From Iphione sp. A-MEVVRFRX5 (lineage: Eukaryota), in contig OZ320320.1 in NCBI GenBank assembly GCA_976226885.1, forward strand, positions 64,790,001 to 64,854,000: DNA of 64,000 nt, given 5' to 3'. The position numbers and the translations under genes were made by a program. Within the stretch, counting starts at the first letter, position 1; each line of letters starts with the position of its first letter. Under the pieces are notes generated by a model. That model worked only from the letters and a program-made list of their open reading frames with translations, ran no database searches and was not told where the DNA came from. Positions 6,367 to 63,193 of the stretch are shown here, one piece after another.

Positions 6367-6471
6367 TATCTAGTGAAATATCAGAAAACATGCTTTTATC
6401 AAATGTAAAAGGCCTGCAAACAGGCAGTTTCGGGCAAATTTTGGGTGCTCTAACTCAGCATTTCATTTCAT

Positions 6472-6821
6472 GGGAAGTTAGCTCAGTGGTAGAGCACTGG
6501 TCCACTGATTGAGTGGTGACAGGTTCAGCCCCTGGCTTTGGACTCTTAATCACAAACAGACAGACTTACTGTAGCTCCAACTCAGAGTGGTCGGAAACTT
6601 GTTAAAAAAACCTTGGGTATATAGGACCCCATCCCCCATGTACAGAAAGACCCCCTAAACCTATTTAAAATAAGTGTAGATAGTCTACCCCAGATATTCT
6701 GGCCTCTCAATTCTCAATAATAGATGTTAGTATGCTACCTCAAGGAGATATGAAAGAACCCTGTCATATGAAAGGTGAATATCTAGTTCCTGGTAAAATA
6801 TACAATTAAACAAAATAAAAA
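6472..6821 (+). mobile_element. tRNA-derived SINE, copy 1
   Basis: Head has a Pol III A-box (AGCTCAGTGGTAGAGCA) and a degenerate B-box (GGTTCAGCCCC). The body CTCTCAATTCTCAATAATAGATG...GTCATATGA...TAGTTCCTGGTAAAA is shared with 45948-46234. A-rich tail. Confidence 0.75.
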
Positions 6822-12209: not shown

Positions 12210-12520
12210 TGTTGGAGCCACTGCGTGGCTGCGGCACCGCGGCACACGAGGGGTGCTGCGGCACAGTGGATTGGACTGGTAGGGTGCAGCGGCACGCCCC
12301 CGTGCGGCACTCGTAGGGGTGCTGCGGAGTAGGAGGGGTCCGGTACCCGGATGCTGAAGAGACTGGGGTCGGGTATATAAGGGAGTTGGCCCACCCGGGC
12401 AGTTCAGATTACCTTTGGTGCTCACTGTTGGTGCTCACTGCTTATGCTCATATTGTTCTTACTGAATAAACCTCATTATCTTAACTGGAGTTATGTCTTA
12501 CTTGCGGAGCCGACGTTACA
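12210..12520 (+). repeat. 5' LTR
   Basis: TGTTGGAG...GACGTTACA; TATATAA at about 12374; AATAAA at about 12465; 3 mismatches against the 3' LTR by manual comparison. Confidence 0.97.
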
Positions 12521-12521
12521 T

Positions 12522-12539
12522 TGGTGGCAGGGGTGGGAT
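12522..12539 (+). promoter_or_regulatory. Primer-binding site, tRNA-Leu
   Basis: TGGTGGCAGGGGTGGGAT begins 1 nt after the LTR. It matches the complement of the tRNA-Leu 3' end (TGGTGGCAGCGGTGGGAT, from memory) with one mismatch. Confidence 0.8.
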
Positions 12540-13971
12540 GGAGGAATCACCCACCGGAGCACCGCGACCGCGAGGAAGGGGGACACGCCCTGCCCCCCGG
12601 GGGGGACACGTGGGACGTACCATTCCCCACGAGTGGTCCCCTGTGAGGGAAGACTCCAGCACTGAGGACGAGGAGGTGCAGCTCGGGGCGCATCGCGTGC
12701 CGCGGGGCCGCGTGCCGCGGGGCCGCAGCACCCCACCGTGCCGCAGCACCCCACTGCACCGCAGCACCCCACCGTGCCGCCGCACCCCTTTGCGCCGCAG
12801 CGGCACAGCACTGTCGGACGAAGACCACTCATCGAGCCGCAGCAGCAGTGAGGATTCTTCTATTCCCAGCGGGGCCGGCTCACCCCGTGGGAGGGGCAGT
12901 GACGACACCACGCCCGGAGCCCCCACCGGGGTAGGAGGACAGGCAGACGGAACGACGAACCCTCGCTACCCTGCTGCCCCGGCCCCCCCGCCGCCAGCAG
13001 CCCCGCCGGCCGGCCCTCCCCCACACAACCCGAGCCCGGCCGGGGGCGGACAGGGAAACGCCGTCCAGCTGATGCGGGGACTGATGGATGAGATCCAGTC
13101 CGCTCTCCGGCCTTCCACCCTGGTACCCCCGACACGCTGATTCCATGTCAAACCGGAATCCTTCAGTGGAGGAGTCCCCCTTGCGGAATACCTGCATCAC
13201 TTCTCCCTGGTGGCCCGGGCCAACCGATGGGACGAAGCGGAACAGGCGCTGCAACTCAGCGTGTGTCTCAGGGGCTCGGCACAATCCGCCCTCCGCTCAG
13301 CCAATGTGGATGTATCCGCTGAGGGAGCGTTCTCGACTATTGTCGAGACCCTGCGACAGAGGTTCCAGTCGGAGGATCGAGCCCAGTATTATGAGCAGGA
13401 GTTGAAACAGCGTCGCCAGAAGAAGGACGAGGATGTCCAGAAACTGGCCGAGGAAATTGAAAGATTGGTACGGCAGGCCTACCCGGAGGCCGAGGGCTCC
13501 TGGTTGGATCGAATGTGCAAGGATGCCTTCGTCTCGGCCCTCCGCGAAGAGCGTTGCCGGAGATGGGTCGTGCAAGCTAAGGCCCGGTCCTTTCAGGCAG
13601 CCATCTCGGAGGCGCTCTTGGCCGAGTCGTACCACCGCGCCAAGAAGGAGCGCAGCCCGGGGGCTGGGGCGACGCGTGTCCACGCGGCACAGGCCGAATC
13701 TCAAGAGGTGGCGGCGGCCAGCCACGACGCCAAGACAACGACCAGATTGGAGCGCATTGAGCAGCTCCTGTCCAAGCTACTGGAACAGCCCGCAACAACC
13801 GCTTCCCCCGTTAGGTGAGGCGGGAAGCGCGCGAACAATGAAGGATGCTTTTACTGCAAGGAGCCCGGGCACTTCAAGCGGGACTGCCCGGTGCGGAAGG
13901 CAGCCGAGAACATCGCCGACGTTGCTCCAACGCAGCCGGAAAACGAGAAGCCGCCCGCCCCGGCTCAGTAG
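12538..13971 (+). pseudogene. gag: Gag, 477 codons, interrupted by two in-frame TGA (13138-13140, 13816-13818)
   Basis: The track ORFs 12493..13140 and 13210..13818 are in the same frame. Reading through the stops gives KPESFSGGVPLAEYLHHFSLVARANRW (capsid-type motif) and the CCHC knuckle CFYCKEPGHFKRDC, ending at TAG 13969-13971. Confidence 0.88.
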
Positions 13972-13980
13972 GGCGGGCGG
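13938..13980 (+). promoter_or_regulatory. Probable -1 programmed ribosomal frameshift signal (gag-pol)
   Basis: G-GAA-AAC (13938-13944) in the gag frame, a 6-nt spacer, then a perfect 10-bp stem CCGCCCGCCC (13951-13960) / GGGCGGGCGG (13971-13980). Pol lies in the -1 frame. Confidence 0.75.
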
Positions 13981-15131
13981 CGTCCGATTCCGTACCACCC
14001 GGCCTGGGACCCCCCTTGGAGGCGATGGTCGCTGCCGTCGAGGGGGAGCCAAGGAGGGTACTGCAGGGAAGGAGGAGGACGGGGTGCCGGGGAGTATTGC
14101 TAGAGGGAGAAGTCGGCGGACAGGTGGTGGACTGGCTGGTGGACACAGGAGCCTCCGCTTCCCTCCTCTCGGCACGGACCTACCGAGAACTACAGGGGGT
14201 GTCGTTGGACCCGGCGGGGGCGCGAGTCTTCGGAGTGGATGGCAGCGCCCTACAAGTATTGGGGCTGGTGGATTGCGAAGTTCGGTTCGCAGGGGTCACC
14301 CTACAGGTGGTGGCCATTGTGGTAGAGATGGAGATACCGGGTCTACTTGGCTTGGACTGGCTGGATCGGTGGGCAGCAACAGTAGATAGGAGGGAGGCCA
14401 CGGTCACTGTTTGGCCTGGCAACCGTGAATGGGCGGCCACCCTGCGAGCCAGCGGCAGTCAAGAGATTCCTGCGGGAGGAATAGGCTGGGTTCAGGCGAA
14501 GGCGTGTCAAGGAGGGGTCGACTCTTTGGAAGGGTTGGCGGAGCCTGACGCCAGGTTCGAGTCACGCTCGGGGCTACGGGTGGCTCGCGCGCTGGTACGA
14601 TCTCAGGAGGGGAGGGTGTGGGTTCCAGTGTGGAACCCCGGCTCCCAGGCGACACGAGTCTTCGAGGGAACCCGGTTGGCCGAGCTCCGTCAGGTCGCCG
14701 CGGTGCTTGAACCACCCAGGGCTCCCCAGGAACAGGTGGAGGCAGAGCAAGAGCAAGCTGTAGAGTACTTGCTAGGGCAACTAGCGGTAGAGACCACCGA
14801 CCCGGAGCGGCAGCAGATAGCGGCCATGCTACGGCGCCATCGCGAGGTCTTCCAGACAGCCAGTGGTCCGCTCGGCCGTACCCCGGAAGTCCGACATCGC
14901 ATCGACACCCAGGGTCACCCACCCATTCGTCAACGAGCAAGGCGCCTCCCCCCTCACAAGAGGGAGGCAGTTCGCGCGGAGGTAGACAAGATGGTGCAGA
15001 AGGGGGTGCTGGAGCCCTCCACAAGTCCATGGGCATCTCCGTTGGTGCTCGTACAAAAGAAGGATGGGGGGCTACGGTTCTGCATCGACTATCGCAAACT
15101 CAACGCCATCACCAAGAAGGACGCGTTCCCC
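13942..15131 (+). CDS. pol: Pol N-terminal part: aspartic protease, spacer domain, start of RT
   Basis: LVDTGAS at about 14136; IEPSxSPWASP-like LEPSTSPWASPLVLVQKKDGGLRFCIDYRKLN. The frame is broken by an apparent extra C in the C-run at 15128-15131. Confidence 0.92.
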
Positions 15132-18100
15132 ACTCCCCCGGATAGACGACACCCTCGATGCTCTGCAGGGTAGCCAGTATTTTTCGGCGATCGACCTGGC
15201 CAGCGGTTACTGGCAGGTCGAGATGGAGCCGGCGGACGCCGAAAAGACGGCGGTATGCACCCTGAATGGCCTTTACCAGTTCCGGGTAATGCCGTTCGGC
15301 CTCTGCAACGCGCCCTCCACCTTTGAGCGGCTTATGGAGTCCGTACTGCGGGGCCTCGTGGGCACCGAGTGTTTAGTGTACCTCGACGATGTGATTGTCC
15401 TGGGCCGCTCGGTGGAGGAGATGTGCACCCGACTCGGCACGGTATTCCAGAGGCTGATTGAGGCCGGACTCCGCGTCAAAGCGTCCAAGTGTCAACTATT
15501 CCAGCGAGAGGTGGCATACCTGGGCCATCGGGTCTCGGCGGAAGGAGTGGGGGTCGACCCAGAGAAGATCAGGGCCGTCTCGCGATGGCCCCGCCCTCGG
15601 TGTGCAGCAGAACTTCGAAGCTTTCTAGGACTCTGCTCGTACTACCGCAGCTTTGTGGAAGGGTTTGCCACCCTAGCGGCACCCCTGCATGCCCTGGCTG
15701 GAGCAGAGCGGGAGTTTGAGTGGTCCCCGGCCTGTCAAGAAGCCTTCGAACAGCTGAAGGCCCGGCTGTCCACTACCCCCATCCTGGGTTATCCGACACC
15801 CTTGGGGCAGCTGCTCCTGGACACCGATGCTTCCGACACTGGCATCGGTGCGGTGTTGTCTCAAGTGCAGGAAGGGCGTGAGCGGGTGCTAGCCTACGCC
15901 AGCCCCACACTGACCCGCCCTGAGCGGAACTATTGCATTACGAGGAAGGAACTCTTGGCGGTGGTGTTCGCCCTCCGGAAGTTTAGATGCTATGTGGGGG
16001 GCCAGGCCATTGACATCCGCACCGACCACGATTCCTTGCACTGGCTGTGCAACTTCCACGAACCACAAGGTCAGCTGGCCAGGTGGTTGGAGGAGGTCTT
16101 CTGTCATGACCTCCGGATCACGCACCGGCCAGGCAAACGCCATGGTAACGCAGACGGACTATCACGGCAAGAATGCAAGCAGTGCGGCCGGCGAGACCTG
16201 GGGTCCGAGAGTGCGGCGGCAGTAGGCATCGCCGGAGTGGAGGGTGGTCCAGATGTGTGCCAGATGCAGAGGGCGGAACCGGCAACAGGCGAGCTCATCC
16301 AAGCGCTGGAGGAAGGGGGGCCCCTCCCTGGACTGCGGGCTGGATTGACCTGGGAAGAAAGACAGCTCAGAGCGGAAGGCCCGAGACTCGAGCTCCGATT
16401 GGGAGCACTGGTGCGCCTTTGGGAAGAGGAGGACCGGCAGAGGCTCCCTCAGACCTATGTCCCCCGGGCCATACGGAAGAGCCTCTGGCAGGAGACCCAC
16501 GCGGGCCCGGTGGGTGGCCACCTCGGTCCAGAGAAGACTGGAGCAGCGCTGCGCCGGCGCTGGTTTTGGCCCGGGATGTCGCGGGACGTTGCACGCTGGT
16601 CCCAGTGCTGTCAGGCATGCCAACAAAGGAAGGGGCCGGGGAGGCGCCACCGGGCCCACCTGCAAGGAAGCCCCGTGTCGGAGTCGTGGGAAGTGCTGGC
16701 GGCAGACATCTTGGGGCCGCTTCCTGTGACGGAGAGGGGAAACAGGTACATCCTGGTAGTGGCCAACCACTTCTCGAAGTGGACGGAGGCGTTCCCTCTT
16801 GAAGAGGCCACCGCGGCGGCCACAGCAGACATCATCGTTAGGGAAGTGGTCTGCCGTTTCGGCCCCCCACGGGTACTCCATTCGGACCAGGGCCGTAATT
16901 TTGAGGCGGCGCTGTTCGTGGAAGTACTACGACTCCTCGGGATAGAGAAATCCCGAACCACCCCCTACCACCCCCAGAGTGATGGGGTAGTCGAGCGATT
17001 TAATGGCACGTTGGGGAACATGCTGGGCACGCTAGCCGAGGAGCGCCGGAAGGACTGGGACCAAGCCCTGCCGTTCGTGATGGCCGCCTACCGGGCCACC
17101 CCCCACAACGCCACGGGGGAATCACCGAACCAGACGTTGTTGCACCGAGAGGTGACGCTGCCAGTGGAGCTGCACTATGGTGGCCCGGCCCCACCCCTGG
17201 TGGATCGTGGGGAATACGCGAGCCGGATAGCGGAAGAGGTCCGCCGGGCGCATGAGAAAGTAGCAGAGAAGCTGAGTCGTGCGGCAGCACAACAGAAGGA
17301 CTGGTACAACCGAGGGGTGAGGCACCAACGGTACGCCGAGGGCAACCGAGTCTGGCTTTTCACCCCGGCCCGTAAGAAGGGAATCTCCCCGAATTTGCAG
17401 AGTTGGTGGGAGGGGCCTTGGACCGTGGAGAAGGCGTTGTCCGAAGTGGTGTACCGAGTCAGCCGTGGACATCGGCACAGAGTAGTTCATGCAGACCGCC
17501 TGAAGATCGCCCATCTCGACCCCCAGGTGACGTGCGGCGTTCAGGAGGCTGCAGCGGCACAGGACGAGACGCAGCGGGCCCAGGAGGAAGCCGCGGGGCC
17601 GCACGGTTACGCCACGCCGCTAGAGGGCGCCGCAGCCGCATCTCAGCTTATAAAAGGCAGAGCGCTGGGCCCCACCCCGTCAACCGCAATACCGCACGCT
17701 TCGGCCGTTAGTCTCCAGGCGGCGCCAGGGGAGCCGCAGGAAGTTGCACCCGAGCGACACCACACGATCCACAGCGTCGTGATCCACGCAACACGTGTCG
17801 AGCGCCAACGGAACGCACCTAAGCCCCCCGACCAGAGAATATCGACCCGGGGCCGCGGCGACAGAAGAGGAGCCGCTGCCGCTGCCGCTCAACGTCTTAC
17901 TTCGACGAGGGATTCGCCGCGGCAGCACGAGGTAAGGAACCTACCATTGGTAGCGGCACACATGGGCGATAATCGGGGTAACGGGAGAAAGCCGCGCTGG
18001 GTGAGCGGCGAAGGTCGTGATGCACCCTTGTTTTTCGATGAAATGTGTGGTAAACCTGTCGCCGCTGCGGAGGGAACTACCTGGAACCGTTACTCTTATG

Positions 18101-21100
18101 GGTACCTTTCTTCCGCAGCTCGACTGGCGTGCTGCACGGGGGTGGACTGCAGCCGCACCATCCCCCTCCGACGTAGTCGCCGCAGGCTCGCACGCCCCAG
18201 TGAAGTCGACTCACCCCTGCCGCTCTGCGGCGATCTAGCGGGCAACCCGCCGCAGCCAGGGTGCCAGGGTACCGCAGCGGCACTACCCGGTGGCGACCAA
18301 CAGCGAGAGGATCGCCGCAGCACCCCAATCAGCGATCCACGCGAGAAGACCCGCAGTGCCGCAGAGGCTGACCCTACCCCACCGAAGCCGGTTCAGACCC
18401 GCAGTGCCGCTGCGGCCCTCGTCGACCCGTTACCGAGCGGCCGTGCGCCACCTGTAAACTGCGCCCCACCGGTGCCGCATCGCCGCAGTGACGACATGGC
18501 TGATGCACCAGAGGACGCCCCCCCACCCGACGCTGAGAGCGACGACTTGGGGTCCTCTGGCGGGGAAGAACCAGGTGCCCCGGAGGAGCGCCGCCACCGC
18601 TGCTCCCGCTGCGCATCCACGTTCGCACAGCCGTCCAACCTGCGCGGCCACCTGAAAGATGTGCACGCGCCTGAGGGATTGGGATGGTTGTGCCCCGACC
18701 CGGAGTGTGAACAACAAGCCTTCCACCGGTGCACCGACTGGAAGCGGCACCTGAATGGGGTCCACGAACCCAACGATTGGGCCCTAACAGTGGACCTCCA
18801 GTACTTACGGTTCTGGGGTCTCAACCCCACCTACGGGGAACCGCGTCTCTGCCCGGCCGACAAGGTGGAGATGCTTCAGCGAGCCCGGGCCCGAGAGAGG
18901 AAGAGCCGAGAAAAGGAGGTGCGTAGAGCGGCGGGTCGACTCCCGACGCACGGAGGGGCCTCCAAGCGAAGCAGCAAAAAAAGAGGACGCTCCGCTACGC
19001 CGGAAGAAGGTGGCGACAACCGAGTGGAGGGACTCTCAGTGGTCACCCCGGGAGCTGCAACCCAGCGGCAGCAAGGTCCCGAGGCCGGTTCGTCGGCTGA
19101 GCAGCCAGAGGACCAGGCGGAGCCACCGCCAGCACAGCCGTCGACGTCTACTGGCGCGTCGACCCCGTCGGGACCTAGAGCAGTTGGGGGAACCCGGAAG
19201 GTACGACGCCGACGGGGAGCGCCCACCCGACAACGGAGGGATCTCCCTCCCAGCTCGTCGGAAGAGAGTGCCCTGCCGTCCGCCCGGGCGCCAGGGGTGG
19301 TATCCCGGACGGTGTTGTCGGGCCCCTTGGGTGGGGAAGAGACCATGACCGGAGACGCCGACTGGAGTGGAAGCAGTTGCGCCGGACCCCCCCCGCCGCC
19401 CGCACCCACAGGGGCACCGGGACCGGATAAGGAAGTACCGCCACGCCCCCCCGGCGCCGAGGGCACCACTGCTGCTCTGGAGAGACGAGGGGCGGGCCGC
19501 TCAGTTGATGCCCCACACCGCGGGCCGCAGACCCCACTGGGTCCCCCGCCTAGCAGCAGCTCGGGCCGGGACTCTTCCACAGATGAGGCACGGCGCTTGG
19601 TGAAGGAGTGGGCGGCCAGCGTCCTCCGCAAGGAGGGGCCTGACCATCGCGCCCCCGGGCCTCCGGCATCGGCCATGCCCGACCTTCCGCCAGACAGCGA
19701 GGGAGGGGAGTCCCCCGTCTCCGGCCGGACGTCGGATCGCGGCACAGGAACCCCCGACGGGGCGGGTGACGGTGGCACCCCTTCCACGACCGAGCCGTCG
19801 CCCCAGGAAGCCCCAGGCCAGTACACTGGTTCCACGGAAGCCGCGACAGGAGATAGTCAGGGCAGTGGAGGGTCGGGACCCCCACCCCGCCTGGACCAGC
19901 GTTTGGCCACTCGCACGTATGCGAGACCACACCGCCCCCCCTCCCAAGAAGAGGAAAGACGGGATGCCCCCCCACCACGGCCAGAGGTAGCCACGCCCGA
20001 CAACATTGACCTACCTGCCGGGGCGTCGCATTATAAGGGACGCAGGCTATTCCTGGACTCAGCTAGTCAGACGTCGGCTGATGAGCCTCCCCCGCAACTT
20101 CAGGTGACCCTGCCCCGGGACACGACCATGGAGCCGAGGGGCGAGGGATTGTCCGGTCTCTCTGGCGCGGCGGGGACTCGCCAGGTGGGAGTGCGAGCGA
20201 CCTTCCGGGCCCCCCCTGCTGCCCGGTCCGTCGGGCTGTCACCCCCATGTCGCCTCCCTGGTATGGGCAGGGGTGCCCCCGACTGTCGCAGGGAGCCCAG
20301 GCCAGGGACTCCGTTTGGGGCGCCCTCGTGGGAAGAAGACGAACGCCGGCTGGACGAACGCCTAGGCGTAGGTTGGGAGCGGCCGGAGGAGGGAGACATA
20401 GTGGACCTTGTGACACCGCCCGGGTCCATCACACCATCGCCTGCCAAGAAGCCGAGATTGGGGGGGGCCACGGAGGCTGACCCAGCCGGGGAGCCCTTGA
20501 CCACAGGCCCGACCGAGACGCACGGGCCCACGAGCGAGGGGCGTTCCCCCAGGAAAGACGGTGAGGAGGAACAGGAGCTAGCGACCCTCTTTGAGGAGGA
20601 ATCTTCTGAAGAGGAGTCGGAGCCCCCCCCCGACGGCACAGCCCCGTGCCCGCGAAGCTCGCCCGTGCCGGACACTGATTCCCAGCCAACCATACCCACG
20701 GCACCAAGGGTGCCCATTGGGACCAGCGACGCGGATACGGTGGGAATTACGGCAAGACCGTCGGGAAGTTCGCGGCAGGAAGAGGTCCCAACTTCCGTTA
20801 CGCAGAAGGAGGCGGAGACGGAGGAGGGCCTGGGTGGCGGCGTGACATCCAAACCTACTGCCGCCGAGGGGGCCGGGCCAGCTCCCGACCCCACGACCAG
20901 TTCAGCCGCGAGCCCGACCATCGTAGGGGCATCGGTGGAGAGCCAGCAGAAAGTCCCAACCACCTCGGAGCGGAAAGGCGAAGAGGTGACAGTGGACCCA
21001 GGGCAGATTCACGAGCCCAGTGGGCCGACAGAGGACGAGCCGGCCACAACAGAGGGGGCTGGGCCAGCCACCAGCCCGGCGACTAGTCCGGCCATTAGTA

Positions 21101-22077
21101 CGACCCCCGAGGAAGTACCGGCCGGAAGTCGACAAGATGGCGCCACCGAGGAGACGGCGAGCCCCGAGCGACCTAGAGGGCCTAGAGGGCCAACGGAGGG
21201 GGTACGTCGGGCCTCTCCACTCCATCTCCAGCTGGTGCTGCCGCCCTCGCGGGGGAGAGGGAGCGGGTCCGCAGGGCTGACTCGGGGTCAGGGCACGTCC
21301 CCATCACCGGGGATAACTCGGCCGGAAGGACCCCTAAAGAAGCAAAGCGGGGCCGGCGTGACCTTGACAGCTGGAGAGACCACAAGGGGCCGCGGATGGG
21401 GGCCTCCTTCCACATCCACCCAGGGAACTCCAGGAGGCGAGGGAAGGGCGAGCCCCCGCGGAATAGCCCCCGTCAGGCCTTGGGAGGACCTAACGGCAGC
21501 AGCGCCGCCCGGAGGGTTCCCGCGCGGCCCGACACCGGGTCCTGGCCGCGGGGCACGCCCTCCCCGGGGCCCCTCCCTTGCGCTGGGGCCACCGGCGCTC
21601 CCTGGGGCAGGGGGGTGGGGGACGCGGCCAAACCCCCCCTCCGGCCCGCCCGCACCTCCCAGCGTACCTTGGTCGGCCCGGCCAACCCCTGGGACGGGAG
21701 CATCCCTGCAGGACGTATCGGGCTCGTCGGGAGCAGAAGAAGAGGTTCCGGCCGACGTGTACGTCTGGGCGGCATCACGGTTGGTGTCGCCGGAATCCAC
21801 CCTACCGCCCGGGTGGATGGTCATTTCCAACACCTCAGCTTTGGATGTGCAGGTGCTCACCGCCGGGCAAGTGAAAGTCGTCCTCCGGCAAACCATCACC
21901 TTCCGGCGGCTTGGGGTGCCGGTCCCCGGCAGCGAGTTGGCCACATGGTATGCCAACTACGGGACGGTACTGACACGGGGCTGCCCAGTGCGACTCCTGT
22001 CCACGTGGCGGGAGGAGCCCACCGCCGGGGGCAACGTGGAGGTACATATCCGAGAGTCGTGGACGGTTCACCTGTGA
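15132..22077 (+). CDS. pol: Pol C-terminal part: RT, RNase H, integrase, then an extension of about 1,520 aa with two C2H2 zinc fingers
   Basis: YLDD (15379-15390); DTDAS and RTDH (RNase H); HHCC and DILGP / HSDQG / VERFN (integrase D-D-E); WEGPW; VVHADRLK (to 17505). No stop until 22075-22077. Fingers at 18601-18666 and 18691-18765. Confidence 0.93.
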
Positions 22078-22245
22078 TTCTCAGAGACGGATATAGCTGA
22101 CGATTGGACTGCCCCTGGATTCGCGACATTACGAGGAATGTGTTACCGGACTCAGACGTCAGACCGCCCCAGGACCTGAGTGTGTTGAACAGTTACAGTT
22201 GCAGTTACGGTTGGGAAGCGAGTTGCTTGAGGACAAGCAACCTCT

Positions 22246-22258
22246 AAGGGGAGGGCAA
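22246..22258 (+). promoter_or_regulatory. Polypurine tract
   Basis: AAGGGGAGGGCAA lies immediately 5' of the 3' LTR. Confidence 0.85.
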
Positions 22259-22569
22259 TGTTGGAGCTACTGCGTGGCTGCGGCACCGTGGCACACGAGG
22301 GGTGCTGCGGCACAGTGGATTGGACTGGTAGGGTGCAGCGGCACGCCCCCGTGCGGCACTCGTAGGGGTGCTGCGGAGTAGGAGGGGTCCGGTACCCGGA
22401 TGCTGAAGAGACTGGGGTCGGGTATATAAGGGAGTTGGCCCACCCGGGCAGTTCAGATTACCTTTGGTGCTCACTGTTGGTGCTCACTGCTTATGCTCAT
22501 ATTGTTCTTACTGAATAAACCTCATTATCTTAACTGGAGTTATGTCTTACTTGCGGAGCGGACGTTACA
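22259..22569 (+). repeat. 3' LTR
   Basis: 311 bp; 308/311 identical to the 5' LTR; followed by the ATAT TSD. Confidence 0.97.
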
Positions 22570-54948: not shown

Positions 54949-57900
54949 GTGAATAATGGCACGTGGCGGCTGGGTGATGTCCTATGTGATGCGTGGGTGG
55001 CCCTCGACGTCATGGGCTGCACCTCCTCCATCCTCAATCTTACGGCCATCAGTGTTGATAGGTTAGTTTAATTTTTATCCCACAATGAATATTAAATTTA
55101 TTCTAAAGGAAGTAACTTTTGAAACCCTCGCGAATATGAAATACTGATTCTATTTTGCATGTAGACATATGTCAAACCAGTTCATTGCTTGATCATTTAA
55201 ATCCAAGCTATCGGAATGGCTATTGGTAATATCAATATGATGTTTCATTTCTTAATATTATACTGAGGGATTTAGCATTGTTAGAATGAATATTCTATGA
55301 ATATTATATGAATACATCTGACATACATTCTCTCAAAACGACGATATTTTCTAATGTGTTGACCTAATTTGCAAATTGGTCAGTCCCAAACAGGCTCCGG
55401 ACAATGCTGTTCAGGTTATCTATATTTCTGAAAATATGTTGACTGCTCACTCTACATGGGGATGATCAGTAATGCTCAACTTGGACATTAACACCAGCCG
55501 GTGTCTAAAATGACTTGAGCCACAGACAAATGCTCCACTCTCCTCCTTTAGAGTGAAAAACGAGACAGGAGAGGGGAACTGACTGGAGAAAAAAATGGGG
55601 AGGGAAGGGGAAGGGAGGGACTGTTGGGCTATACCTGACCAAAGACCTGAGTAGTGTAGAGAGGGTAAGAGGTCATTGAGTGCATTCCTGTGTCGCCACC
55701 ATACAGATAGGATTTCATTGAGTGCACTGAACTGGTGGGACTAACTCATTGTGCTTAGTGCAGTTGCATCAAGAGTAATTGAGTGGGACCATCGTTTTAG
55801 GTAGGGAGTTATCAGTTGTGGTGGGGCCACTGAAGGCACCTGCACTAGGAGCTAGGCTATCAAATTAGGAAGTGCACTATTCCATTAGAAGATCTTTGAG
55901 TTCATTGAATCCATTGGTACTATGGAAATCAACTAATGTATGAGAGATACTATGTATTACACTGTGCCTATCCTGACACATAGTTGAGTCAAAGAGGAAC
56001 TGAGGGTGATGGGGATATTTTAGTAAGTGGAAACTAATGAAGGGTCACCTGGAAGGGAGTTCCCAGTTCATACGCATTGTATATTATGACTATGACATCC
56101 GCTACCTTAGCACTAGTTTTCGACGGGGATTGGTGTTTGGTCCCATTTTGCTGGTAGTAAACACCTTCATAAACTCACTCCGGCATGGGTCTAAGACCTC
56201 TCACTTTGCAGATGGTTTGCTTCTGTCTCAGCTGGACGGGACCTGGTGCTTCAACATTAACAAATGCACCGTTGCCCCTATGCTGTGGCTCAATGGTGCA
56301 ATCGTGAAGGCATACAGCTAAATTCGGAAAAGTGTCAGTACATGATGACCAGTAAAGCAAAGGGCATTCCATTTGATATTGCACTGGGAGATTTCACTAT
56401 TAAGCACATCACTACATGCAACATCCTGGATTACGAGCTGGAAAACAGGCTTTATGGAAGTGCAACGCTAGGAGAAACCAAGCGGAACATAAAGTTGCAA
56501 TCTGGAAGGTTTGGCAAGCTCAATGGAACCTGCCTGCAGGTTTGAGGCTTCACTTTATGCAAACCCTAGTCCTGCCGAATATGTAGCTGTGCTGTATTTT
56601 TGTATGCTTTTGGACCAAGATACATGATGTTCTTCCCATGTACACCTTCATGACTGAAATCAGCGCATCACCCGTCCCCAATATACACCGGTATGCAGGA
56701 AAACTAGTACACAACTGATCTGCATTCCCTTATATGCATCCAAATATGTCTGTCTGGACACATGGGTGGCAATGTCATAACCATTTGTGTGTTTTCCTTT
56801 CCACGTGTCCTAGCTACGTATCTGGCATATAAAAATATGTGTGCATGTAAAGCCCATTTTGAAATAAAACCTGGAAGAGCATGAGGGTTGGGATTGTGGT
56901 CGATGAATACATACATATAAGTTGTAGAAGCACTGATTCTTTAAATTACTATATAAAGATTCACAAGAAGCAGGTAACCATGAAGATTGGCTTTTGAGTA
57001 AATATTGCTATCATGCCTCAAAGTGTGGCAAGTTACATCACTGATCATTCCTATCTTGTGTGAGCAATTGATAACTAGAATATCCTTGTCCTGATCCCAT
57101 TTTGGATGAACCAACTGTGGACTAAGTTGATAAGGACTCATCAGAAAAGTAGGGCATGTTTACCAGAAATATATCTATCCGCTGGAATTGATCGCGGATA
57201 GACAACATTTCTACAAGAAATGGAAGCGTGACAAATGTGAAGACGCGAGGTGCATTTTCAAGTATCTAAACACGCAGTTAAGGAAGGCAGTGGACGCTGA
57301 CCATCGTAAGCACTGGAGGGGGAAAATAGCAGAGGCAGATAGGGATCCGAGGAAACTCTGGAGTGTTCTCAACAACATCCTGGGACGCGATGCCGAAGCT
57401 GAGATACTACCGCATGAACCTGAGAATAGCACAAGTGCTCGAGCAAAGTTGGCCGACCGCTTCAACGACTTCTTCGTCGACGAGGTCGCAAAATTAGCAG
57501 TGACACCACAGACAACAACTTGGAAGGCACCTGGCACACAAGACTCGTTCAGCATAGGAGATCCGAGCCCGATAGTGATTCGGCCATTAATCCAAAAACA
57601 GCATCTGCGCAAGGCTTCGGGAGTGGTGGGTCTTCCAACACGTATTCTCAAGCCACTACTACTGCTACTGTTGGACTATGTCGCGGAGTTATTCTCCAGA
57701 ATCGTTGAAACAGGGCAGTATCCAAATCGTGGAAAGTGGCCCATGTGACACCTATCTTTAAGAAGGGTGACCGGGAGAATTTGTCAAACTACAGGCCGGT
57801 CTCCATATTACCATTATCGGGTAAGATCTTCGAGGCGTGGTTCGTAGGCAGCTTGATGAAGAGTCTTGACGAGAGGAAGTTCATTAGCAAGAACCAACAT

Positions 57901-60900
57901 GGATTCCGACCAGGCCGAAGTACGGAGACTGCAGTTGTAAGCATGATTATGGATGCTCAAGCGAAGTTGAATGCGGGTATGTACTGCAGTCTCCTTGCCT
58001 TTGATCTCAAAAAGGCCTTCGACTTGGTCCCTGCATGCGTTGTACTAAAACGGCTTAAGCTGGCAGGAGCAAACGTCAAGATACGCAAATTGGTTGAGAG
58101 TTACTTTGCAGGCCGGAAACAGTTCGTTCTATGTAAGGGGGTCAGCTCTGGTCTTAGGGAGGTGCAGCATGGAGTGCCGCAAGGATCGGTTTTCGGTCCG
58201 AGCGCCTTCTCGATCATCATTGATGAAGTGACCAGATGCCTCCCACCTCACAGTGAAGTTGCACTCTATGCAGACGATCTCACCATTGTGGTTGCGGCTG
58301 GGGATCTACTGCATCTTCGAGCGGTGTCGCAGAATACGGTGAATGCGGTATCCAGATGGTGTGAAGACACAGGGCTGCTATTAAGTGAAAACAAGTGCTG
58401 CTATATGGTCCTGGGAAAAGCAGCTGACACGCCATTGGACCTGCACATAAATAACAACAAGTTAGCGTTAGTGAGTAAGGCATGCTTACTGGGATTCACC
58501 GTGGATTCTCGACTGAAATTCAAGGAGCAAGCGAACGCGATCAAGGTGAAAATGTGGTGTAGTGCCTTGAAACTTGGGAGAGTAAAGCACCTACTGCCAC
58601 TGGATGTCAGAGCGAAGCTCTTCAAGGCATTGGTGTTGCCCCATTTGTTCTACGGAGCAGCAGTTCTTTTTGGGATGACCACCTCCCTTATAGGGAGTCT
58701 GCAAGTGCACCTAAACAGATGCATACGGGTCAGTCTGCAATCCAGGAAGCAATCTTCAACGCGGATGCTAGCAGGTAAATTTGGCATCGACAGAGTCAGC
58801 GAAATAGTGGAATGCAGAGCAGTGTCCGCCGTCCATCGCCTAGCTCACCTGGACTTGCTGACACTGGCAAGTAGATCAAAAACGAGGGATGGAGGCAGCA
58901 TGAGGGTAGTGCCTCCGAAAGCAAAGTCTAGAAAATTCTTGTCCAGCCTGTGCTATGGCGCACCAACACTGTGGAATTTCCTCCCGGGCGCTGTAAGGGC
59001 TGCCAAGAAACCAAGTCTGAGGGCTGTTCTTCTGGGAAAACGACGACCTACCACGAGTTAGATAGGGCTACTCTGACAACAACATGTAAATTAAGGGTCT
59101 CACGAGTCCCCCGAGGGGGAGGTGGGGGCTAGATGGTGCTACAAGTGGTCCGGTACAATTATGGTCTAATCAACACTAAAGGGGATACACAGTGTGGGCG
59201 ACAATAAAGAAAGGCCTGATAAGTACAGTATTACTGCCAGATGTGGAGTGGACAAAGGGGATGCTTTTATGTTGGCAATCCACACAAGCAGATACTTGTT
59301 GAGCACTCTTGAACGTAAAGGCCGCTGATAGCGGTTGTGTGTACATACTGTCTATGTATCGTCCTGTCTTGGTGCAGCATGTCGTGTCAAGTGTTTTATG
59401 TCACCTGTGAATATGTGATATCTAACATGTGGTGTCTGTGTTGTCAATCCTGTACAAAGTGACGTCTATACTTGTTTATGTTCGTTGTTTGCGTGTCCAG
59501 TGCATATGTGATGTCAATCTCGAGATTCACCTTTACAGTGTACACTTGTCACTCTTTCCTCCAAGAATTAACCAAGGAGAACTTTGTACAACTACGAAGA
59601 ATGGTTAATAAACATTTATACAATTCAATTCAATATGTCAGATGTTTTCTATAATATCCGACTGGGTAGTCAGCGCATCTGATCATGATATCCTGAATTA
59701 GTTCTGTTCAGGGATGATACCATTTTCCTTCTCATTCAAATTTCAAAAATAATAGTTTTTTTAATTCAATGAACTGTTGCCGTATAATTGTTGGCCATTT
59801 ATTTAATGCTACCTCTATTCAGAATTTTCTTCTATTTTGGTTCAGGCAATCCTACCTACACTACAGGGTTTTCTTTATCTAAATCTCCTAATTCAATTTT
59901 GACCTTTATTGGACAATGTCAGTTCTTAACTTCAATAATGGCCATCTCCAAAATAGCGCACAGACCCTCATACTCCAGTCAGCAAATTAATGTTTTCATC
60001 TATGAACTAACCTATAGGCCTATTAACCCAGATTGACCTTATCTATACCGGAAAGGTATTCCTTGCTTCAAGACTCTGTGTAACTATTTTTTTATTAGAC
60101 TGATTTATGAAGCATGTATCCCATGCCTTTGGTTCCGTGCGAGAGGGAAGGGCAACACTGTGCTGTAAATTACTGACCTGAGAAATGGGAGCCCCTTCTG
60201 ATACGCACACATCCCAGCTGGCTTCATGACCATAATTTATTTTCAATTAATAGCTTTAAGTGTAGATGTGTTAACTAGCTATGCAGTATATAAATTCAAT
60301 TTCATATTCGAGCAAGTCTTTGTGGGGTCCTTACTAGACTTTAGACATCGTCCCGTTTGTGGAACTTTTACCGAAACGTGAGGTAAAATAAAATGCATAT
60401 GATCTATTTTATTCATTTTGTCTCCGATTCGAACTTCCAAAGACAACTATATCCCAGAGTGTGGTGGGGTGTATGTGAAAATATCTGTCGAACAAATGAA
60501 CTGGCATATCTCACTTAAGATAGCTTGCTTTAGAACCTCATTCGCTGTCCGTAAACTTGAATGCTAAAACCTTTCTATGCGGATATAAGTATGTCACTAG
60601 AAAGTCACCCTTAGTTAACTCATTTTCACTCTTCTCTTTCTCTCCTCATCCGACACACCGGACCGTGACAACCCTACTGTCCTTCGGGATCCAGATTTAT
60701 AGCTGTCACCCAGCCCATTCGATACGCCAAGCACAAACACTCTAAGAGGGTGCACATCATGCTTGCTCTCACATGGATCGTCTCCATCGCCATCTCCTCG
60801 CCTATCGCGCTTGGTATGAACTATACGGAGGCGCGCAGTCAGACGCCCGAGCTGTGCATCTTCTACAACTCCGAGTTCCTCATCTGCTCCTCCATGGGCT

Positions 60901-63193
60901 CCTTCTACATCCCCTGCATCATCATGCTCGTCCTGTACTGGCGAATCTTCCGGACCATCCACATGCGCGCCAAGAAACAGGCGATGAAGATGACACGCCA
61001 CCTGGCGGCCAATGACCGCAACCTGCAGAACGTTATCGAGAACCGCGACGTTTCGACCAACTACACCGGCTTTTCCACTTCGGGCAGCAGGGGGCGAAAC
61101 GACACCAGTGACGCACTGGCGCTGGAGCGGCGCCGCCGGAAATGTCCCATACACGGAAGTCCTGACCGAGGTCGCGGTGGCGGGGTTGGCGGGCGTAGCG
61201 GTGGGGGTGGCATGTCGCCCATACTCTCGCCGCAGCAGACGTCGTCGTCAACTCCGACGACTACACCTTCCGCTGCGGCTGCGGCGGCGTCGCTGGCCAT
61301 GGCAACGCATAACAACCACGAGTCGACGTCGTTTGTCTGTGGTGGCGCAATGACGACGACGACGACAGACACCGGGGACGAGGACTCCCACTGCGCCGAC
61401 GTCGTGCGCAGTCCGCTCAGCGACGACACGGACCACGTGATCCCAAATGACAAGTCCACCGACTTCATGCTCAGCCCCCAGAGCGAGGACTCTCACGGCG
61501 AGAGCTACCGCGACGTCGGCATCATCGGTGGAAGTGGCGGCCCTGCTGGCGTCGGCGGCGGTTGTGGCGGAAGCGGGGGTGGAAGTGGTAATAACGCTGA
61601 CATCGGTTACAGCCCGCCAGTCGCCATTGTTGTTGAGACACAGTTCTCCAACGTGACGTCCCCGACGTCGCCGCAGACACTGCTCGGTGGCTCTTCCAGT
61701 GGTCGGAAGGCGGGTCTCGGCTTCCGGAACCATGCTGCCGGTAAACTGAACTTCCTGCGGCGCGAGCATAAAGAATCGCCGCGGAAAAGCGTGACCAAGT
61801 TTAACTTTCACCTTCGGCACAGTAAGAAGAAGAAGCAGAGCTCAGCAATACGTCGGGAGCGCAAGGCTACCAAGACACTGGCCATTGTCTTAGGTGAGTA
61901 TTCGACATGTGGCTTCTTGCGTCTCCTTCGTGTCTACGAATTATTCTACATCTGCCCCCCTGCAACAATATGCAATATCAGGACAAGGGTTTGTGGCCTT
62001 AGACACTTTATTGGGTGGCGACGCACTGCCAAGGGCTTGAGCTAATTTCAACCTTATGATGCGCAGATCGAATCAAGAAGCTTTGGTCCTCTTATTCCTA
62101 AGTCAAAGTGTACATACTGCACGTGAATAGAGCAGTGCAGGTATATCTTATATCTCTAGTTTATCTTAAAATAGACTGTTAAACATAACCGCATATGTGC
62201 ATACATATAGAAAGTGACAGCAAGAGAGGGAAAGAGAGTTTAAACAGAGAGAAAGAATACATGCACACATGGTAAGCACTGCATGCAAAGCCACATACAT
62301 AAGGGCTGGGGGGAGGGATGGGAGAGGAGCGGGGCGGCGGTATGCCAAAGTGAGCCTAAGGACAGAATGGTTTAAATAAGTGGACAAGCACTGAATCTAT
62401 AGCTATTTGGGACAATAATGGCAGGCGGGGAACAAATGAATATTAAGTTGGAGACCAAGCTTGGGACTGGTTAATTTTAGTCCCTCCCATGATTTGGTCT
62501 GATCAGGCAAACTCTACATACATCTACGTAGATGGAAATGGATGATTTGATCTTGTAAGTCTTTGTTTCTCCCCATTTTGGCCTCCCTATGCTCTAGTCC
62601 GGGTGTCCACTGTGGATGCATGCTGTAATATCAAACATAATACTGATGCTACCTGCATCCCTTCTCATGCCTTTACCCGTTAAACTATAGGGGCATACTC
62701 CGAAAAGAAATTTTTGGTGGTTGCTACTTGCAGTTATGATTATCATCTGTAGTTGCCTTCTTCACTTGTCACTATCACTCCTGTTTCTTTTTCTTCTATC
62801 TGCAAGCTGTCCACACAAATATGAATGGCATACCTTTTACTGTATATTAAAATATTGCTCTGTTCATTCTCCTTTATGAGGTACATTTATATGCTGTGTC
62901 TTAATGTTACTGACGAACCTTTACATCATTCCTATTGCTTTCTTTCGCTAGGTGTGTTCTTGTTCTGCTGGTTACCGTTCTTCACTGTCAACGTCATGAC
63001 AGCCATCTGCATCAAGCTGGATGTTATGCACCGACCGGAGTGTAACATTGATGCCACGCTCATGTCCTTCTTTGTGTGGCTCGGCTACATCAACAGTTTC
63101 CTGAACCCCGTCATCTACACTATCTTCAACGTTGAGTTCAGGAAGGCCTTCAAGAATATCCTCTTCAACCCTTGCAACCGCAAGCGCTTGTGA
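54949..63193 (+). CDS. Dop2R: D2-like dopamine receptor (class A GPCR), 5'-partial: join(<54949..55061,60695..61893,62952..63193)
   Basis: TM3 Asp ([21 protein letters not shown]|F); TM5 serines ([11 protein letters not shown]); long ICL3 ending [14 protein letters not shown]; TM6 FCWLPFF; TM7 [18 protein letters not shown]; short Cys-containing tail. GT/AG introns are phase-compatible, and those before TM3 and in DR fall where I recall D2-family introns. Confidence 0.9.
56040..56560 (+). pseudogene. Decayed LINE RT fragment in the receptor intron
   Basis: GLVFGPILL...INSL...HFADG and [17 protein letters not shown] resemble the GSVLGPLLF / YADD / WxxxNxLxLNxxK blocks. Confidence 0.6.
57188..59634 (+). 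mobile_element. 5'-truncated CR1/L2-group LINE: RT with one frameshift near 57725, plus 3' UTR
   Basis: [51 protein letters not shown]; stop at 59061; AATAAA at 59607 and a CAATTCAATTCAAT tail at 59621-59634. No endonuclease domain seen. Confidence 0.9.

Follow-up and report, generated by a model that had tools for sequence, protein, structure and literature searches.

A C2H2 zinc-finger protein in frame behind integrase in a Gypsy clade of Iphione sp., a candidate self-encoded regulator

The element and its open frame behind integrase

The window analyzed here is a stretch of 64,000 nt from Iphione sp. A-MEVVRFRX5 (GCA_976226885.1, OZ320320.1 positions 64,790,001 to 64,854,000, forward strand). 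It holds a Gypsy long terminal repeat (LTR) retrotransposon of 10.36 kb, spanning 12210 to 22569, whose pol frame runs on behind integrase into a protein with two C2H2 zinc fingers. According to our analysis, this feature is clade-wide and under selection, and the protein is a candidate regulator of the element's own promoters. The features of the element are as follows; UTR stands for untranslated region and U3 for the unique 3' region of the LTR.

12210..12520, plus strand: 5' LTR, 311 bp, its U3 carrying (T)GCGGCAC / GCGGAGT repeats that lie upstream of the TATA box (near 12374)
12522..12539, plus strand: primer binding site-like stretch TGGTGGCAG.GGTGGGAT, which we take to be of the tRNA-Leu type
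12538..13971, plus strand: gag, broken in the window copy, with a cluster of the U3 motif in its 5' part at about 12700-12810
13938..13985, plus strand: candidate -1 gag-pol frameshift signal GGAAAAC, then a GC-rich inverted repeat
13842..17505, plus strand: pol with aspartic protease, reverse transcriptase (RT), RNase H and integrase (zinc, core and p58_C), from Pfam
17506..18495, plus strand: linker of 330 codons, stop-free and CpG-rich, predicted to hold an internal promoter, a 5' UTR and an intron
17617..17631, plus strand: CTCF-like site CCGCTAGAGGGCGCC, with its core in 8 of 11 family representatives
17647..17657, plus strand: TATA-like box of the predicted internal promoter
17932..18118, plus strand: predicted intron of 187 nt, with donor AG/GTAAGG, GCGATAA at 17966 and acceptor TTTCTTCCGCAG
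18496..22077, plus strand: predicted stand-alone accessory protein of 1,193 aa, with a Kozak ATG and in frame with pol
18601..18924, plus strand: two C2H2 fingers (18601-18666 and 18691-18765), a conserved beta hairpin and a long basic helix
18925..21711, plus strand: disordered P/G/S/T-rich tract with basic and acidic patches and the short conserved motifs RRLF and LDxRLGxxW
21712..22074, plus strand: folded alpha/beta domain at the C terminus, matching no known family
22243..22258, plus strand: polypurine tract
22259..22569, plus strand: 3' LTR

The element belongs to Ty3/Gypsy (Metaviridae), with LTRs, target-site duplication, primer binding site, polypurine tract and the domain order gag, protease, RT, RNase H and integrase (Pfam) all present. 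The LTRs, of 311 bp each, are identical at 308 of 311 positions and have TG...CA ends, and the target duplication is ATAT (4 bp). Pfam scans detected no chromodomain at the integrase C terminus, so that the element does not qualify as a chromovirus. The window copy is young yet decayed: its gag is broken by a stop near 13140 and a frame break near 13820, its pol carries a private frameshift near 15130, and it differs at two finger residues that are otherwise near-invariant. Pol is likely made by frameshifting, since gag and pol overlap in the -1 frame and a heptamer (GGAAAAC in families 1 to 4, GGGAAAC in families 5 to 7) precedes a GC-rich inverted repeat.

The frame from 14986 to 22077 is open over 2,363 codons. 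Integrase ends with HADRLK at 17505, and the extension past it comprises 1,523 stop-free codons, 330 of them ahead of the ATG at 18496, in agreement with an earlier note on this DNA that had reported no stop for about 4.5 kb. The same note took LRRSRRR (18166-18186) for the usual Pol tail; this peptide is altered already in sister copies and absent from other families, which rules it out as the ancestral Pol end. Relatives were sought in the genome of this animal (1.18 Gb, 89 contigs). When the C-terminal domain and the end of integrase were used as protein queries, with 150 scored of 1,236, 2,043 and 5,906 candidates, six further families came to light (families 2 to 7, beside family 1 of the window copy), all of which carry the same finger pair and C-terminal domain. 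RT identity is 72-79% for families 2 to 5, and the 12 rows from this genome form one group in the RT tree (FastTree), with a Shimodaira-Hasegawa-like support of 100. Natural single frames of 2,376-2,742 codons occur in all seven families.

In 23 elements from the seven families, the linker, 251-626 codons long, has no stop in the pol frame, and the two remaining plus-strand frames hold 244 and 288, which bears out the earlier estimate that 330 stop-free codons are improbable by chance; for families 2 to 7 the copies were chosen for long open frames, and several copies of equal length exist per family. Family 1 was sampled by DNA similarity only: 40 of 54 candidates were scored, 39 copies other than the window copy were fetched, and 3 partial ones were dropped. 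In 24 of the remaining 36 copies the linker is free of stops and frameshifts, and its break density per kb per copy (0.42) compares with 0.49 in the region from RT to integrase, the breaks being private to single copies except for one site common to two. In three of the 39 fetched copies, one uninterrupted frame of 2,715-2,716 codons still covers everything between protease and the C-terminal domain, both included. In neutral simulations, the observed substitutions leave the linker stop-free in less than 4% of runs for six of nine pairs. A fusion private to one copy is ruled out by the long frames in seven families and by the 36-copy survey; a family-wide stop after integrase, raised earlier as a possible objection, was looked for and not found, and the fusion, whose conservation the note had proposed to examine, is conserved. 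The linkers of L079/L081, L076 and L112 have grown through tandem duplication in whole codons.

The accessory protein and the linker ahead of it

Selection along the extension was estimated from nine within-family pairs, pooled, as the ratio of nonsynonymous to synonymous substitution rates (dN/dS). The linker, between integrase and the internal ATG, has a ratio of 0.62 (0.55-0.69), and the stretch from that ATG to finger 1 has 0.20; farther on, the value is 0.10 for the finger domain, 0.31 for the disordered tract and 0.11 for the C-terminal domain. Single pairs of whole frames give 0.02-0.18 for RT and 0.03-0.10 for integrase; the pooled rows for these two domains were set aside, being inflated by two truncated frames (L081 and L082). 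The fingers and the C-terminal domain are thus under strong purifying selection, to which the disordered tract is also subject, while the linker is weakly constrained as a protein though kept open. The accessory protein proper probably begins at the internal ATG, since dN/dS drops there.

The fingers and the compact C-terminal domain described in the earlier note were located where it had seen them, with CSRC..H..H at 18601 and CPDPEC..H..H at 18691, and its basic patch KRSSKKRGR lies at 18964-18990, with a P/G/S/A/T-rich tract behind. The zinc ligands C-x2/4-C...H-x3/5-H are invariant and a beta-beta-alpha fold is predicted, as in a classical finger pair; the whole region is modeled as two C2H2 fingers, a hairpin and a long basic helix, with a predicted local distance difference test (pLDDT) score of 87. 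Its Pfam scores are under the curated cut-offs, its Foldseek matches are weak and to generic finger proteins only, a homologue search with the finger domain returned one generic multi-finger protein, and no relatives of the domain were found in metagenome contigs. Conserved fingers under purifying selection support the suggestion of a transcription factor-like module.

The fold prediction for the C-terminal domain is confident (pLDDT 89), and judging from the model it is a well-folded module, unmatched in any library searched. No sequence family match was found for it in these libraries (72 candidates in one search), and another search gave three weak multi-stretch matches, of which the one inspected, P0007, is a tandem repeat. 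Its Foldseek matches have E values above 0.001, and the best comparison with phage tail terminators (Z 7.0, root mean square deviation 3.9, 101 aligned residues, 5% identity) lies in the range of common arrangements. The missing structural match does not establish a new fold. No enzyme or repressor domain is recognizable in the accessory protein. The highest mean hydropathy over 19 residues (Kyte-Doolittle) is 0.89 in the window copy and 0.67-1.19 across seven family representatives, values so low that the extension is deemed to have no transmembrane segment, as the earlier note had stated; an envelope (env) identity of the 3' region, errantivirus-like or as in Tor elements, is thereby ruled out in the seven representatives.

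The linker ahead of this protein resembles a promoter, a 5' UTR and an intron. The apparent conserved peptides EVS/QVS and SSAAR correspond to a splice donor AG/GTRAG and an acceptor ending in CAG. The donor is present in 21 of 23 elements, and in 18 of 21 the first ATG past the best acceptor falls in the finger frame. Ahead of finger 1, each of the 23 elements has an ATG in the finger frame; position -3 is a purine in all of them, and position +4 is G in 20. In four representatives of families 1 to 3, the predicted spliced 5' UTR contains no ATG in 1,701 nt, and the predicted intron contains 13 in 751 nt, where 7.2 are expected. Among 11 representatives, the donor is found in 10, the CTCF-like core in 8, GCGATAA in 8 and a strict TATA box in 5, each count exceeding the maximum of 200 shuffles. 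The observed/expected ratio of CpG is 0.91-1.18 in the linker vs 0.68-0.86 in its coding flanks, the linker being highest in 10 of 10 cases. Family 7 has no donor and no intron, and its ATG is preceded by GC boxes, CCAAT and a TATA-like box.

The predicted introns have 14 distinct lengths, all of the form 3n+1, as follows from homology and the open frame; splicing of the full-length RNA would therefore end Pol 7-39 codons later. Intron-less genomic copies were not found among 108 loci of ten kb, with junction patterns of families 1 to 4, nor in the copy alignments. It is likely that the finger protein of 1,193 aa is produced on its own in addition to being part of Gag-Pol, since the linker resembles a promoter and 5' UTR followed by a Kozak ATG, and the sequence signals as a whole strongly imply its separate expression. 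The subgenomic expression that had been proposed as a possibility gains from the ATG context, the splice signals and the step in dN/dS. In treating the 330 codons as a protein linker, the earlier note overlooked their promoter, splice and start signals and the motif shared with the LTR.

Family motifs, finger residues and the competing explanations

Every family has a short repeated motif in its U3, ahead of the TATA box of the LTR, and in all families except family 6 the linker is enriched for that motif as well: GCGGCA in families 1, 2 and 4, GCGGCT in family 3, and GCGGAG in families 5 and 7. Six of seven families therefore share a motif between the LTR and the predicted internal promoter, as expected of a response element. 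Within the linker the motif reads sense in families 5 and 7, antisense in family 3 and mixed in families 1, 2 and 4. This difference between families fits a double-stranded DNA site, and it rules out that U3 and linker share the motif in order to pair with each other as RNA over a long range. In the 5' part of gag (12700-12810), repeats include a 15-nt perfect complement to U3, with 13-nt complements in families 5 and 7, which could be extra binding sites or an RNA circularization signal. Family 2 carries tandem CAGCTG E-box-like repeats beside GCGGCA in its U3 (3' LTR of L070 and L073).

In the C2H2 recognition code, the residues R-1, D3 and R6 read GCG, and R-1, N3 and R6 read GAG. Finger 2 has R-1, D3 and R6 in all families, which by this code gives GCG, the constant half of the motif. 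Finger 1 carries R6 wherever the next motif base is G; in family 7 it has R-1, N3 and R6, calling for GAG, which equals the family 7 motif, and in family 3 it has H-1, where the motif ends in T. Family 6, whose U3 repeat differs, lacks both R6 and N3 in finger 1. The recognition residues and the motif thus appear to change partly in step.

These features would be explained by a self-encoded zinc-finger regulator, made from an internal promoter and a spliced mRNA and predicted to bind and activate the element's own LTR and internal promoter, a proposal to which we give about an even chance. A promoter at the integrase end would start an RNA, from which the short intron is removed and which is translated from the ATG at 18496. 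Wherever the family motif occurs, in U3, in the linker or in the 5' part of gag, the two fingers would read it. The disordered tract may recruit coactivators or keep the CpG-rich promoters unsilenced, closing a positive feedback loop like that of foamy virus Tas. The linker might be kept stop-free so that -1 frameshifted Gag-Pol brings a few regulator copies into the particle, which might then reach the new insertion and start the loop there; these last two steps are the least certain. Self-binding is what we predict, and activation and the purpose of the fusion are what we infer. In its widest form, which we put forward tentatively and somewhat below an even chance, the proposal describes a lineage of 'complex' LTR retrotransposons with their own C2H2 factor, an insulated internal promoter, delivery through Gag-Pol, and fingers and motifs that diversify together, each family driving only itself.

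Several observations weigh against a self-activating regulator. The motifs were chosen after the sequences had been inspected, a strict TATA box is missing from 6 of 11 representatives, family 4 has ATGs inside the predicted first exon, and no activation domain was identified in the accessory protein. The U3 repeats of family 6 are GTGC(A/T), with no motif enrichment in its linker. N3 in finger 1 calls for a middle A, yet families 1 to 4 have C (GCA or GCT), and in families 2 and 5 the last base is not the one that the code gives for their L-1 and Q-1, respectively. The co-variation of fingers and motifs rests on two or three independent changes in a small tree, the motifs could instead be sites for host factors, and a repressor would account for binding equally well. 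At the metagenome locus L175, from a distant clade, the finger lies in a frame other than that of pol, with its own ATG, so that fusion may not be needed everywhere.

The earlier note had raised, as one of two possibilities, finger-guided integration, in which insertion would be directed to given DNA or chromatin by the fingers or the C-terminal domain of a module still attached to integrase, in the manner of chromodomains (PMC6338049). Strict retention of the fusion in seven families would agree with such a tether, as would the packaging of a Pol fusion together with integrase. The insertion sites speak otherwise. Of 108 loci, the 96 whose LTR end could be located were examined over 300 bases on the 3' side. 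Their flanks are AT-rich (39% GC) and show only a target preference NTAT, with T at position 2 in 80 and A at position 3 in 83; the predicted finger motif is not enriched (in 19.6 kb, GCGGCA 3 times and GCGGAG 0), and no target repeat is shared among them. Copies are spread over all large chromosomes, and a tether would need no promoter, intron or ATG of its own. We consequently regard it as quite improbable. Hardly better in our judgment is an RNA factor like Rev or CERV, a separately made protein that would bind unspliced genomic RNA and export or package it: the genomic RNA retains a strong donor and acceptor and needs to stay unspliced, basic arginine-rich patches are present, and CERV of Cer1 is required for genomic RNA export (PMC10309623), but the fingers have typical DNA-reading residues and resemble DNA-binding C2H2 pairs, and a motif located in U3 upstream of the TATA box, with an orientation that flips between families, is ill-suited to a single-stranded RNA site.

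The same motif and finger evidence would also apply to a self-repressor or a sequence-specific anti-silencer, which would bind the same motifs and limit copy number or remove methylation as VANC does. VANC proteins co-evolve with family-specific motifs in the non-coding regions of their own elements (PMC5735166); the motifs here contain CpG, the linker is CpG-rich, and some linkers have grown by tandem duplication. The motif clusters lie, however, directly upstream of TATA boxes, the usual position for an activator, and the protein has no enzyme or repressor domain that we could recognize, so that we deem this explanation quite unlikely. Somewhat unlikely, in our estimation, is that the fusion itself has no role: the open linker would serve RNA stability (no stop followed by a 4.6-kb tail), or the fused protein would be cut at once by the protease. 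The free variation of the linker in length and sequence, with a dN/dS of 0.62, agrees with this, as do the 3n+1 lengths of all 14 introns, by which spliced full-length RNA offers a tail-free Pol. Yet most ribosomes already end at the stop of gag, with a tail of 8 kb behind it, and sparing one stop after pol gains little unless another signal protects gag.

Known systems, relatives elsewhere and other features of the window

A self-encoded DNA-binding transactivator together with an internal promoter is a hallmark of complex retroviruses. If the regulator proposed here is real, retrotransposons would have arrived at the regulatory design of complex retroviruses, the families would offer a natural series of finger/motif pairs directly testable in vitro, and hundreds of young insertions would bear the factor gene, its binding sites and a CTCF-like site across the host genome.

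The closest architecture known is Cer1 of Caenorhabditis elegans, whose CERV protein is made from a spliced mRNA with its last exon in frame with the polyprotein (PMC10309623). Both elements have a 3' open reading frame (ORF) that shares the polyprotein frame, splicing in ours being predicted from sequence. CERV differs in that its N-terminal exons are shared with gag and in that it is a 517-aa protein with a possible C4 finger and a role in RNA export (PMC10309623), whereas the accessory protein studied here has 1,193 aa, two C2H2 fingers and signals that point to an internal promoter. In foamy viruses, Tas/Bel1 is an accessory protein encoded near the 3' end; an internal promoter expresses it, and it binds response elements located in that promoter as well as in the LTR (PMC517496). 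Our element is predicted to work alike; Tas, in contrast, is encoded by a separate ORF not fused to Pol, and foamy viruses are Retroviridae with env. No sequence link to Tas was found in the fold and family searches, the only comparison made. In the Gypsy-type elements Tor3b and Tor4b of Oikopleura, a 3' gene is driven by an internal promoter that has been mapped to pol or directly after it (PMC4402516); that gene is a membrane-bound env, whereas the one described here has no transmembrane segment and is in frame with pol.

VANC of the Arabidopsis VANDAL elements is a DNA-binding protein whose target motif is repeated in the non-coding regions of its own element and varies by family (PMC5735166). 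The likeness is that of an element-encoded protein and a family-specific motif in its own non-coding regions, with binding in our case predicted; VANDAL elements are plant DNA transposons, the protein is unrelated, and demethylation has been shown for VANC only. Among Gypsy elements, additional ORFs captured downstream of pol encode GDSL, DEDDy or env proteins in bdelloids and an AlkB-like protein in orchids (PMC5408684, PMC9289625). Like ours, these are accessory genes kept behind pol over many replication rounds, but they are separate ORFs with enzyme or membrane domains; the words 'zinc' and 'finger' do not occur in the accessible text of the bdelloid paper. No Gypsy element with such a C2H2 accessory protein was found in the literature searched, including the accessible parts of PMC9289625, PMC5408684, PMC7828637 and PMC6338049, with most subscription papers, Repbase and GyDB outside the search.

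When we inspected Gypsy relatives from other organisms, considering the best 120 of 240 long ones, only proteins of at least 1,493 aa were searched, so that the survey favors read-through forms. A C2H2 pattern behind integrase was detected by regular expression in five of these 120 (P0008, P0053, P0061, P0083 and P0085) and by eye in three more (P0063, P0077 and P0086), as one or two C2H2-type fingers with a disordered tail. In seven of the eight, a Met separates the finger from the usual Pol end motif. The eight fall at three other positions in the RT tree, and the C-terminal domain is absent from all of them. At another metagenome locus of a distant clade, L174, a finger preceded by an acceptor-like site and an ATG shares the frame of pol. 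In the widest form of the proposal, these shorter read-throughs from integrase into fingers would represent an accessory gene that is widespread and unannotated in Gypsy elements from other animals. The name of P0008 is that of a pearl oyster protein, and the long Gypsy relatives P0084, P0111, P0105 and P0106 have in-frame env-like or immunoglobulin-domain tails behind integrase.

Elsewhere in the window, a tRNA-like dispersed repeat is present in two copies 82-84% alike (6471-6816 and 45947-46235), probably a short interspersed element, in which ARAGORN detected no tRNA. Two adjacent open frames at 57134-59061 on the plus strand match RVT_1 (Pfam) and read like an ORF2 fragment of a non-LTR retrotransposon. 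A large exon at 60669-62045, also on the plus strand, encodes a rhodopsin-family G protein-coupled receptor with a long third loop, which we presume to resemble a D2-type dopamine receptor.

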